Of a DNA stretch of 9,386 nucleotides, positions 4,177 to 9,386 are shown piece after piece. The notes under the pieces were generated by a model that saw nothing but the letters and a program-made list of their open reading frames with translations, was not told the origin of the DNA and did not search any database. Origin of the DNA: a virus (lineage: Duplodnaviria; Heunggongvirae; Uroviricota; Caudoviricetes); the IMG/VR virus record IMGVR_UViG_2706794695_000003; one strand, given 5' to 3'. Every line of letters starts with the position of its first letter. Position 1 is the first letter of the stretch. Both the position numbers and the translations under genes were made by a program.

Positions 4177-4425
4177 CTACTTAATGCACTGAGTGCGGAT
4201 ATACTCCTGTGCCCCTTCCAGTTGCATCTGCATCGTCATCAGCCGCTCTCTGAGGGTGAAATAATCCCGTTCAGCGGTGTCTGCCAGTCGGGGGCTGGTT
4301 GCATTATCCACGCCGGAGGCGGTGGTGGCTTCACGCACTGACTGACAGACTGCTTTGATGTGCAACCGACGACGACCAGCGGCAACATCAGCGCGCAGAG
4401 TTTCATTTTCAGCTTTCGCATCAGC
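4177..4425 (-). CDS. Rz: i-spanin Rz, C-terminal 82 codons (5' part lost in the N-masked gap)
   Basis: Visible translation ADAKAENETLRADVAAGRRRLHIKAVCQSVREATTASGVDNATSPRLADTAERDYFTLRERL… closely matches my recollection of the lambda Rz C-terminal half. The upstream end runs into the N-run at 4426. Confidence 0.85.
   Translation of the reverse strand, partial: ADAKAENETLRADVAAGRRRLHIKAVCQSVREATTASGVDNATSPRLADTAERDYFTLRERLMTMQMQLEGAQEYIRTQCIK
4239..4421 (-). CDS. Rz1: o-spanin Rz1 lipoprotein, embedded in the +1 frame of Rz
   Basis: 60-aa ORF MRKLKMKLCALMLPLVVVGCTSKQ…PPPPP… with a lipobox (VVGC) and a proline run; ATG at 4421..4419 lies just outside the N-run; wholly inside Rz in another frame, as in lambda. 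Confidence 0.8.
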   Translation of the reverse strand: MRKLKMKLCALMLPLVVVGCTSKQSVSQCVKPPPPPAWIMQPAPDWQTPLNGIISPSESG

Positions 4426-4700
4426 NNNNNNNNNNNNNNNNNNNNNNNNNNNNNNNNNNNNNNNNNNNNNNNNNNNNNNNNNNNNNNNNNNNNNNNNNNN
4501 NNNNNNNNNNNNNNNNNNNNNNNNNNNNNNNNNNNNNNNNNNNNNNNNNNNNNNNNNNNNNNNNNNNNNNNNNNNNNNNNNNNNNNNNNNNNNNNNNNNN
4601 NNNNNNNNNNNNNNNNNNNNNNNNNNNNNNNNNNNNNNNNNNNNNNNNNNNNNNNNNNNNNNNNNNNNNNNNNNNNNNNNNNNNNNNNNNNNNNNNNNNN
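4426..4700. other. N-masked gap (275 N)
   Basis: Run of n. Hides the body and 3' end of the endolysin gene and the 5' part of Rz. Confidence 1.
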
Positions 4701-4790
4701 ACCACCTGGGCCAGTGATTAACACAGATGCTATAGCAACAGCCCCACCACCAATAGCAGCTGCAACAGCCTTGCGTAATGATGGCGACAT
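4701..4790 (-). CDS. SAR endolysin (phage-21 R-type lysozyme), N-terminal 30 codons only; remainder masked
   Basis: ATG 4790..4788 overlaps the holin stop (TAATG). [30 protein letters not shown] is a Gly/Ala-rich weakly hydrophobic signal-anchor-release segment, matching my recollection of the phage 21 R N-terminus. Confidence 0.7.
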
Positions 4791-4963
4791 TATTCACCTC
4801 TCGCAGCCTTACGCTTGTCTTCTCTTATTTTGAAATACAGATTTGTCAGATAAGTCAGAAGCCCCAGAAGCAGACTTCCCAGCACACCAATCGCAGCCCA
4901 CTGTGATGGACTGACCTGATCCAACCACTGCAAAAACCAGTAGCCGGCACTGCCGGCGGAGGT
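4790..4963 (-). CDS. Pinholin (phage-21 S-type holin), C-terminal 57 codons; N-terminus masked
   Basis: Visible translation [57 protein letters not shown] has two transmembrane segments and a charged tail, matching my recollection of phage 21 S (about 68-71 aa); stop TAA 4792..4790. Confidence 0.8.
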
Positions 4964-5192
4964 NNNNNNNNNNNNNNNNNNNNNNNNNNNNNNNNNNNNN
5001 NNNNNNNNNNNNNNNNNNNNNNNNNNNNNNNNNNNNNNNNNNNNNNNNNNNNNNNNNNNNNNNNNNNNNNNNNNNNNNNNNNNNNNNNNNNNNNNNNNNN
5101 NNNNNNNNNNNNNNNNNNNNNNNNNNNNNNNNNNNNNNNNNNNNNNNNNNNNNNNNNNNNNNNNNNNNNNNNNNNNNNNNNNNNNNNNNNNN
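4964..5192. other. N-masked gap (229 N)
   Basis: Run of n. Hides the holin start and whatever lies between the tRNA cluster and the holin. Confidence 1.
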
Positions 5193-5255
5193 GAGTCAGA
5201 CATTCCCACACAATATTGTGTCAGTGCAAATAACAACCTTCGTCTCAAATCTCGC

Positions 5256-5330
<75 letters not shown>

Positions 5331-5333
5331 ATA

Positions 5334-5409
<76 letters not shown>

Positions 5410-5411
5410 GC

Positions 5412-5488
5412 TGGCCCACCACCGAGGACTCGAACCTCGCACCGTCAACTTAGAAGGTTGATGCTCTATCCGGATGAGCTAGTGGTGG
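5412..5488 (-). tRNA. tRNA-Arg (anticodon UCU)
   Basis: 77-nt cloverleaf: acceptor CCACCAC/GTGGTGG (unusual C1-G72), D-stem GCTC/GAGC, anticodon stem TCAAC/GTTGA, loop CTTCTAA, T-arm CGAGG-TTCGAGT-CCTCG, CCA encoded. Confidence 0.75.
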
Positions 5489-5489
5489 T

Positions 5490-5566
5490 TGGTGGCCCTT
5501 GCTGGACTTGAACCAGCGACCTGGCGATTATGAGTCGCTCGCTCTGACCAACTGAGCTAAAGGGCC
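5490..5566 (-). tRNA. tRNA with anticodon CAU; likely Ile2 (lysidine, ileX/ileZ-like) rather than Met
   Basis: 77-nt cloverleaf: acceptor GGCCCTT/AAGGGCC, D-arm GCTC-AGTTGGTCA-GAGC, anticodon loop CTCATAA, T-arm GCTGG-TTCAAGT-CCAGC, CCA encoded. Overall close to my recollection of E. coli ileX. Confidence 0.75.
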
Positions 5567-5652: not shown

Positions 5653-5680
5653 ATAAAAAAACCCGCTCATCGGCGGGTTT
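5653..5680 (-). terminator. Rho-independent terminator downstream of the ORF6N-domain gene
   Basis: Minus strand: stem ACCCGC/GCGGGT (forward 5661..5678) with a 6-nt loop, followed by 8 T (forward A-run 5653..5660). Confidence 0.6.
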
Positions 5681-5755
5681 AAGCTGTGTGGCGTAGTAAC
5701 CACTCTTAACAGGATATTCAACTTTTTACGATCGTAAAGTTTTCGGAAAAAATTT

Positions 5756-6319
5756 TTAAAACCGCATCAACCGCTCCACCAGTTGCTCTTTACGGGCAAC
5801 GATCCACCCGTGTTGCTCCAGATAAAATTTAAACCGTTCCAGAGTACATACCATCGCATCGGCGGGTACCTTTTCCGTGAACTCAACCTGACCGTGTTTA
5901 TCGAAGTGGCTCAGTAATGCGCATCCATCATTTTCGATAGATGTGTTTTGTGCCGCTGGTGGCTGTTTCTGGTTGAAATAACAGTCTTCCAGTTTTTCGA
6001 ACACTTCCCACGCCTGATCGGTTTCGAGCATTTTGGCGTGACGGGCTGCGCCACGTTCTGTCCAGAGGATGAGGGAGCGAACGTTACGGGCAATTTTCAC
6101 AGAAACTCTTAAAGAGTTTTCGTTCTTCAACTCTCGTAACGCATCACCTTCTATCAGGAAAAAATGTTTACCTTCTATAAACCGTTCTTTGTTTCGATTG
6201 AAATTGTTTGTCAAACGCTGGCGCTCTGTTCCGTACAAATCAGCCAGCAGCTCTGTTGTCATGACAGGAAGATGGTTATGCGTAAGTGACGGGAGTTTTT
6301 CAATAGACGTGCGATTCAT
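5756..6319 (-). CDS. ORF6N-domain protein (antirepressor-like DNA-binding N-terminus, C-terminal domain of unknown function); accessory cargo gene
   Basis: ORF open from 6517 (GTG) to stop TAA 5758..5756. Preferred start is ATG 6319..6317, with AAGGA 7 nt upstream, giving 187 aa. The N-terminus (…LPVMTTELLADLYGTERQRLTNNFNRNKERFIEGKHFFLIEGDALRELK…) fits the ORF6N pattern as I recall it; the C-terminal ~100 aa is unrecognised. Confidence 0.7.
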   Translation of the reverse strand: MNRTSIEKLPSLTHNHLPVMTTELLADLYGTERQRLTNNFNRNKERFIEGKHFFLIEGDALRELKNENSLRVSVKIARNVRSLILWTERGAARHAKMLETDQAWEVFEKLEDCYFNQKQPPAAQNTSIENDGCALLSHFDKHGQVEFTEKVPADAMVCTLERFKFYLEQHGWIVARKEQLVERLMRF

Positions 6320-6525
6320 AGACATGTCCTTTCGAATATTTTGATTTACCCCTTTTGAGAGGGTGACCGGGCGCTCAAAACCGTCGAAAGTCGGCGGGCG
6401 TATTTCCATTGCTGGTATTGTATTAGCCGCACACCCGGTCATAAACCAAGAATTCTGGACACAAAAAAACCACATGGCTATCGGGTGTGGATACCGCTTT
6501 CGAGGTGTTTTGAGCACCGCGGGGA

Positions 6526-6554: not shown

Positions 6555-6679
6555 CACCGTCAGGTTCCAATCATCGGGTGGTGAGACGCACAGGGTTGGA
6601 ACTACCGGGAAACCGACCGGCGAGCTTTTCAGCTCCCCCATGCGCCCCACCATAATTCAGATGTGCGCGTGCATACGAC

Positions 6680-6704
6680 AATAAAAAACACGCTCGCGGC
6701 GTGT
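6680..6704 (-). terminator. tR'-like intrinsic terminator ending a short pR' leader RNA
   Basis: Minus strand: stem ACACGC/GCGTGT (forward 6688..6704) with a 5-nt loop, followed by TTTTTTATT; about 75-80 nt downstream of the predicted pR' start. Confidence 0.6.
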
Positions 6705-6765
6705 GTCTGTCGCGGTCTCTATCCGGGGTTCCAATCCCGACGCCAGATTTTGCTGGCGCGTGAGG

Positions 6766-6795
6766 AATATAGCCCCGGACAATGTGTCTGGTCAA
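6766..6795 (-). promoter_or_regulatory. pR'-like late promoter immediately downstream of Q
   Basis: Minus strand: -35 TTGACC (6795..6790), 18-nt spacer, -10 TATATT (6771..6766), starting 5 nt after the Q stop. The early transcript carries hairpins GCGCCAG-N6-CTGGCG and CGGG-N8-CCCG before the terminator, so the qut region would be here. Confidence 0.55.
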
Positions 6796-6799
6796 GCAC

Positions 6800-7186
6800 C
6801 TACATAATTCGTTCTACGTATCTGTCCATCTCCAGCCGGATATCAAGCATCATCAACATGCCATCAATAACCCCTTCCGCTTTCTGCAGGCGCTTGCCAA
6901 TACAGGTATCCGAACACCCATGTTTCCGTGCCAGACTCATAAAAGTCATTCCACCTACGTAATAATCCACCAGCAAATCGTGCAAATCCTGATTTTTCTT
7001 GTTCAACCGGGCCATACAGCCACAAATTATCATTGCATCATCATCAGAACACTGAGGGCGTGATTTCACTTTCGACGGAATTAACCCTTTAAAACCAGCA
7101 GCGATCGACGCCCAGGATACATCTTCATGAGTGTTTGCAGCCCAAGCCCCCCACCGTTCCATAACCTGCTGAATATCACGCGCCAT
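6800..7186 (-). CDS. Q: Late-gene antiterminator Q (short QuuD/phage-21-like type, not lambda-Q type)
   Basis: [61 protein letters not shown]…[23 protein letters not shown]… matches my recollection of the about 127-aa QuuD/Q21-family proteins. Start taken as ATG 7186..7184 with AGGTGA 5 nt upstream (the track ORF extends to 7207); stop TAG 6802..6800; followed by pR'. Confidence 0.85.
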
Positions 7187-9192: not shown

Positions 9193-9386
9193 GCAGCCAC
9201 ACCTCTGATACAAGAACGGTAGCTGGGCCAGTTGAACGACAACCAGTTGCGCCCCCCGTCTGTGATCCTGTCGGCAATGCGGGGGCTGATGAACGCTGGA
9301 TTTGCCCCTATATTTCCAGACACCTGTTATCACTTAACCCATTACTGGCTTGCTGCCGTAGATATTCCCGTGGCGAGCGATAACCC

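Follow-up and report, generated by a model that had tools for sequence, protein, structure and literature searches.

The second run of N in the window (the whole 9,386-nt stretch of viral DNA that was analysed) is, with a probability of roughly 90%, a scaffold gap of arbitrary length over about 659 bp of ordinary, already sequenced DNA, and not a biological feature. The run (positions 4964–5192, 229 N; henceforth called gap 2) corresponds to 657–659 bp in finished genomes, which comprise holin codons 1–14 and about 617 nt of a late-operon leader. We infer this content from genomes with identical flanks rather than having read it directly in the source strain. From the same gap-closed leader we conclude that protein-coding cargo is absent. 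For this prophage lineage a false lead would thereby be removed, namely a masked interval in the position of a toxin gene, which holds no hidden toxin or defence gene; and the lengths of N runs in drafts of this kind are not usable for reasoning about their content.

The minus strand of the window carries the late region of a lambdoid prophage, which is a degraded remnant. In order of transcription, genes for a DnaB-type helicase, RusA, and the antiterminator Q are followed by small-RNA matches, an ORF6N-domain gene, four tRNAs, and gap 2, and then by the holin gene, the start of the endolysin gene, the other N run, Rz/Rz1, an HNH endonuclease, the small and large terminase subunits, and the portal. 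Exactly two N runs are present, at 4426–4700 (275 N; henceforth called gap 1) and at 4964–5192. Positions 1–20 of the window lie inside an IS4-family transposase ORF of the finished genomes, just past the truncated portal gene, and the last 79 nt (9308–9386) lie inside an IS3-family ORF beside the helicase gene; the window has the appearance of a single scaffold bounded by IS elements. Proteins identical to the ORF6N and large-terminase products of the window are labelled “Shigella sonnei” or “Shigella” in public sources.

All genes of the lysis cassette are likewise on the minus strand. A class II (phage-21-type) holin (PF04971; 90% nucleotide identity to the phage 21 cassette) is visible from codon 15 to codon 71 plus stop at 4790–4963. 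The first 30 codons of the endolysin (PF00959) follow at 4701–4790; this visible N-terminus is rich in Gly and Ala and weakly hydrophobic, and is putatively SAR-type, given the annotation of the homologous phage 21 gene as “SAR endolysin.” Beyond gap 1, which stands for 620 bp with endolysin codons 31–165 and Rz codons 1–72, lie the C-terminal part of the i-spanin Rz (4177–4425, PF03245) and the embedded ORF of the lipoprotein Rz1 (4421 to 4239; lipobox-like LVVVGC; PF06085 in locus L032). Gap 2 is bounded upstream by tRNA-Gly(TCC) (5256–5330, minus strand), the last of the four tRNAs, and downstream by the holin gene, which is where the sequence-only reading had placed it.

For gap closure, finished chromosomes with the same prophage were retrieved by exact-protein look-up of the ORF6N and HNH proteins of the window, and 15 distinct records were compared. 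The ORF6N look-up gave a match with the start at 6319 and none with the ATG at 6325. The three non-N segments of the window (4,425 + 263 + 4,194 nt; 8,882 bases) are matched at 99.9–100% in 14 of the 15 records, and seven of these 14 are 100% identical, in one piece per segment; the 15th (CP032523.1; L014/L024) has a diverged lysis cassette, its identity being 97.0% for the 263-nt segment and 99.3% for the first one. The flanks are contiguous in all 15 records and are spaced by 620 bp at gap 1 and by 657–659 bp at gap 2. The hidden 659 bp of gap 2 are identical in 9/15 records (11/19 loci), and the differences in the other records of the prophage are of one base only, in runs of C6, A6, or G6. 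At gap 1, the hidden 620 bp are identical in the 13 records in which both anchors were found.

The same continuation was found outside the finished records. In viral contig L050, too, the 659 bp are enclosed by flanks of 100% identity, and three complete E. coli genomes (L001, L002, and L005) match the window up to both edges of gap 2, with 660 bp between the edges; among complete E. coli genomes, the leader was found in only a few records. The visible start of the leader (5193–5255, minus strand), directly downstream of tRNA-Gly, is followed by the same 611–708 bp at every locus found. A 35-nt pattern from this right flank of the gap led to the same leader with at least 99% identity at every locus found, and relatives with the identical 62-nt right flank (E. 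coli, S. flexneri, and viral contigs) continue in the same way at no less than 99%. Within the species-representative genome collection, the 35-nt flank was matched by just two genomes, S. flexneri SFBU1023 and E. coli ECMA0423, at two loci each; two leader copies per genome were seen in these two and in contig L050 only.

Since the spacing in the finished genomes differs from the N counts, neither N run is length-faithful when judged by these alignments (229 N vs. 657–659 bp, and 275 N vs. 620 bp). For gap 1 this had already been stated from the sequence, and the comparison bears it out. A faithful length of gap 2 would mean that the source strain has just 229 bp there, its leader having lost about 430 bp. 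We consider this hardly credible: other lambdoid prophages do have a shorter tRNA-to-holin spacer of 292 bp, which gives the idea no direct support, but this spacer type lacks the 62-nt right flank of the window and was rejected as a model of the gap, and a shortened leader was seen at none of the loci with this flank. Gap 1, moreover, is unfaithful too, as its 275 nt have no room for the 620 nt that two otherwise intact genes lack there.

The gap-closed DNA has the makeup of a leader. From tRNA-Gly to the holin, the spacer spans 680 nt (11065–11744 in late direction in locus L015, whose coordinates are used below for hidden positions), of which the window shows 62–63 nt and the gap masks about 617 nt. 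The hidden part of the holin comprises 42 nt or 14 codons (residues MYQMEKISTGIAYG), so that the earlier estimate of about 14 masked holin codons is exact in finished genomes with identical flanks. The gap-closed holin has 71 aa and starts with MYQMEK (Met1, Met4), and both the 71-aa and the 68-aa versions have been called. In phage 21, the Met1/Met4 pair gives antiholin and holin.

The leader is a mosaic of two modules. Module 1 (the first approximately 290 nt) is linked to tRNA-Gly; a search of a phage collection with the leader gave almost no match, except for weak similarity at the same position downstream of tRNA-Gly in an LT-IIb prophage and in one other phage. Module 2 (the last approximately 385 nt) is linked to the holin and has three counterparts at 85–88% identity: DNA preceding a holin gene in another prophage, a relic on a ColV-type plasmid next to iss/Rz fragments, and a fragment within an ST131 island. 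On plasmids and in ST131 chromosomes, unannotated DNA aligns at 85% identity with 350 bp of the leader. The two such loci examined, on a ColV-type plasmid and in one ST131 island, were considered as a mobile element or gene and rejected, each being what is left of a prophage and adjoining iss/Rz remnants or IS fragments.

The coding potential of the leader was assessed on its longest hidden ORFs (98, 71, 53, 50, and 37 aa). Scans of six leader ORFs, and of a RefSeq “hypothetical protein” of a relative, against Pfam, PHROGs, and PADLOC gave no match, and the NCBIfam scan of the leader ORFs gave one chance-level match to RhoL only (E-value 0.068, 13 bits vs. a cut-off of 85). In RefSeq, the leader interval carries no annotated gene in the three E. 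coli genomes. Could the 98-aa ORF (L015 11242–11538) nevertheless encode a real small cargo protein? It was called by gene callers in two of the distinct records listed, and a GGGGA motif stands 3 nt before its ATG. Against this, it has no credible family match in the four libraries, and among 5.8 billion proteins only Shigella copies were found: six clusters of unnamed proteins, four at 87–100% identity and two consisting of 70-aa variants with 71% identity over part of the length. The ORF also straddles the junction of the two leader modules, which have different evolutionary histories, and homology to the 85–88% homologues begins inside it. Its frame is broken both in the aligned part of these homologues (indels of +2, +1, −2, +3, −10, and −1 nt) and within the same prophage, by homopolymer variants at L015 11478 and 11504, and RefSeq leaves it unannotated in E. 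coli. A genuine cargo protein is thus extremely unlikely here.

Over the gap-closed 657–659 bp of the 15 finished records, no ORF has a family match, diverged homologues, or a conserved frame, and no credible protein-coding gene (toxin, esterase, or defence) lies between the last tRNA and the holin. The conclusion that cargo is absent from the gap-closed leader is drawn because its ORFs lack family matches, the frame is broken, the module junction is crossed, and RefSeq annotates none. The sequence-only reading had left two outcomes for the masked interval, a mere spacer or an unseen cargo gene; the 15 finished records and one viral contig favour the first, with only the holin 5′ end and intergenic leader, and lend the cargo gene no support. 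That first outcome had been put as a short intergenic region; with 617 nt hidden and 62 nt visible, the spacer is not especially short.

Several RNA elements are predicted in the hidden leader. A long hairpin (L015 11183–11263; −40.4 kcal/mol, z −5.9) lies about 120 nt downstream of tRNA-Gly and is followed by a weak terminator-like hairpin (L015 11323–11342), a perfect 12-bp stem (L015 11512–11523 / 11558–11569; −27.4 kcal/mol, z −4.3), and a strong predicted intrinsic terminator (L015 11678–11704; 10-bp stem followed by T6), which ends 40 nt before the holin ATG. With a 20-nt pattern from the 3′ arm of the long hairpin, 110 stretches of viral contigs were retrieved; the end of a tRNA-Gly gene lies 170–200 nt upstream of the 3′ arm in 99/117 instances, and the hairpin is usually flanked by a phage tRNA-Gly on one side and a holin on the other. 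Aligned across 26 distinct variants, the hairpin proves to be conserved and covarying: 97.5% of the cells of its 31 pairs are paired, and eight pairs show compensatory change, values reached by 0/500 shuffles, while slid controls were paired at approximately 36–55%. Many positions are G–U pairs, which would be A–C mismatches on the opposite strand, and the hairpin is therefore specific to the late-sense RNA.

Known RNA families do not account for these elements, as Rfam gave only microRNA-like chance matches on the leader, far below gathering scores, and blastn-short of PasA, PasC, PasD1, and PasD2 (EPEC E2348/69) against it likewise gave only chance matches. It is conceivable, and we put it forward tentatively, that the hidden leader is not inert and that the hairpin is a cis-acting RNA element so far undescribed in lambdoid late operons, perhaps a site of RNase III processing or stability or an element that affects antitermination. 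If so, such a processing or stability site would set the lysis mRNA apart from the tRNA-bearing part of the late transcript.

Contig L050 (IMG/VR, 4,330 bp) matches the window at 100% from the tRNAs through the leader to the holin (L015 10654–12167). In this contig, the endolysin gene is truncated at L015 12167 and followed by a second, partial copy of the leader (L015 11199–11738), which starts inside the hairpin. Some strains thus carry rearranged or duplicated lysis leaders, which could complicate the content of gap 1 in an unseen strain.

Relatives with the hairpin differ in what they carry between the tRNAs and the holin. A holin start (phage-21-type or PF16931 type) lies within 700 nt downstream in 68 of the 84 hairpin-bearing loci with enough sequence. 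An ORF of 141 aa with a TerB domain occupies the slot in about seven relatives. In L068 and L089, an IS110-family element (PF01548) sits at L015 11735–11738, between the terminator and the holin ATG; the leader of L056, L073, and L102 is followed by the same element, and neither holin type was found at these three loci; in L007 and L009 the homology ends at this same point. IS110-family elements thus recur at this site, just ahead of the holin ribosome-binding region (L056, L068, L073, L089, and L102, and probably L007 and L009), and an insertion there would cut the holin off from late transcription.

An insertion in the source strain, either an IS element or a cargo gene, that lies in gap 2 and itself broke the assembly is accordingly to be weighed. 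The IS110-family transposase genes between leader terminator and holin ATG or after the leader, the halted homology in L007 and L009, and the TerB-domain ORF in the slot of other relatives are all in its favour, as are the IS elements at the window ends; Shigella genomes are IS-rich. Nevertheless, no insertion is present in any of the 15 finished records of the prophage or in viral contig L050, and identity to the 263-nt holin flank of the window is only 98.5–98.7% in those IS110-bearing loci that have kept a holin. An insertion would also be expected to give a larger, not a smaller, estimated gap. Taken together, we regard an inserted element as very unlikely, and retain the scaffold gap over the common leader as the reading of N run 2.

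As to the origin of the gap, we infer a repeat-broken assembly, because the ends of the window lie in IS elements and because contigs with the ORF6N gene are short (only 2–10 kb in most public assemblies); the twofold leader of SFBU1023, ECMA0423, and L050 fits the same picture. The source would be a short-read draft of a Shigella sonnei-type genome that broke at repeats and was joined by N runs of estimated size. At gap 2, the N would then replace the rest of the tRNA-Gly-linked module with the 31-pair hairpin and the weak terminator, the holin-linked module with the perfect 12-bp stem and the strong terminator about 40 nt before the holin ATG, the holin ribosome-binding region, and holin codons 1–14 including Met1/Met4.

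Upstream of the tRNAs, the window holds further elements, all on the minus strand. The Q antiterminator gene (6800–7186; 128 aa, PF06530) is directly followed by a promoter-like site (approximately 6766–6795). Four Rfam matches above gathering score come next: c4-a1b1 (6720–6772), isrK (6683–6759; 77.5 bits), which ends in a terminator, a C4 antisense RNA (6574–6657), and sRNA-Xcc1 (6357–6440). The ORF6N-domain (antirepressor-like) gene (5756–6319) is the protein-coding extra gene between Q and the tRNAs, and it lies outside the gap; a hairpin resembling an intrinsic terminator (5659–5680; L015 10640–10661) lies downstream of it. The real extra module of the late leader is this Q-to-ORF6N interval and not the gap. 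The tRNA cluster (5256–5566) comprises a tRNA with CAT anticodon, Arg(TCT), Thr(TGT), and Gly(TCC). The first of these (5490–5566) was called tRNA-Met by ARAGORN; it is probably a lysidine-modified tRNA of the ileX/ileZ type, like the first tRNA of Stx phages, because RefSeq calls a 99.8%-identical E. coli copy tRNA-Ile.

From these elements, a model of late transcription can be proposed, in which the roles of promoter, terminators, and hairpin are predictions. Transcription would start just after Q, at the isrK-type promoter-proximal RNA, and Q-modified RNA polymerase would read through at least four terminators (those of isrK and downstream of ORF6N, and the leader pair) into the holin, endolysin, Rz/Rz1, and head genes. 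In the lysogen, the terminator before the holin would insulate the lysis genes from transcription of the tRNAs and ORF6N, and the long hairpin would probably serve as an RNA processing or stability element, e.g., an RNase III site. This logic of termination and antitermination, as well as the function of the hairpin, is suggested by analogy with established lambdoid biology (PMC7547250, PMC4825925). Hairpin and pre-holin terminator together may be part of the reason why lysis genes stay silent downstream of phage tRNA genes and of extra genes inserted there.

Among known systems, the cassette itself is closest to the phage 21/DLP12 type (S21 pinholin, SAR endolysin R21, and Rz/Rz1; essD-rrrD-rzpD in E. 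coli K-12), with which it shares the gene order. Nucleotide identity to phage 21 is approximately 90% over the visible parts, and the prophage of the window has a holin of 71 aa, a PF00959 lysozyme of 165 aa, and a PF03245 Rz with embedded Rz1. Unlike that type, it has a four-tRNA cluster and the 680-nt leader directly upstream of the cassette. In DLP12, the nmpC porin gene lies between Q and essD, and what it has in common with the window prophage is limited to the holin gene (80.6%) and an 82-nt segment that precedes essD; the holin-proximal leader module is absent from the K-12 DLP12 region upstream of essD. The shared segment (L145 5196–5277 vs. L015 10582–10663, window approximately 5657–5738; 88% identity) covers the terminator region after ORF6N and lies about 120–200 nt upstream of essD. 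Set against DLP12, the post-ORF6N terminator and the holin seem to have been separated by an insertion consisting of the tRNA cluster and the 680-nt leader.

The layout also resembles that of Stx-converting lambdoid phages, in which Q, PR′/tR′, tRNAs, stxAB, nanS-p/yjhS, and the holin follow each other (PMC7547250): here, too, Q precedes a tRNA cluster (first anticodon CAT; including Arg(TCT)) and then the lysis cassette, all within the late transcription unit, and both features of a Stx-type slot are present, i.e., a Q gene upstream in the same orientation and a tRNA cluster between Q and the lysis genes. The interval is indeed the stx slot of such phages, as had been proposed; in Stx2a phage LC567838, tRNAs, stx2A, stx2B, yjhS, two hypothetical genes, and the holin follow in this order, and the interval amounts to approximately 4.5 kb with genes, whereas the tRNA-to-holin interval of the window prophage amounts to 680 nt without a credible gene. 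The idea of a cargo slot is therefore sound in general, and in this lineage the slot is empty according to the gap-closed genomes. The LT-II enterotoxin prophages with the tRNA-Gly/hairpin leader (phage SerU-LTIIb, L011, and seven IMG/VR loci) have their toxin genes downstream of the endolysin, a cargo position that differs from that of the Stx phages between tRNAs and holin.

The upstream module parallels the antQ-isrK-orf45-anrP-isrJ locus of Gifsy-1 (PMC4825925), in that a Q-like antiterminator is followed by the isrK match and an antirepressor-like gene. Unlike the Gifsy-1 locus, it also has matches to a C4-type antisense RNA and to sRNA-Xcc1, and the layout from Q to ORF6N in addition parallels the C4/ant immunity module of the P1 type. 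The leader, finally, can be set beside the prophage sRNAs next to holin-lysozyme operons, namely PasA/C/D of EPEC and AsxR/AgvB of EHEC (PMC4104026, PMC8550237, bioRxiv 10.64898/2026.05.13.724894). It differs from these Pas RNAs and anti-sRNAs in lacking sequence similarity to PasA, PasC, PasD1, and PasD2 and an Rfam family at gathering score, but belongs to the same class by position, that of non-coding, terminator-ended RNA genes within the insertion-tolerant stretch downstream of PR′ beside the holin operon.
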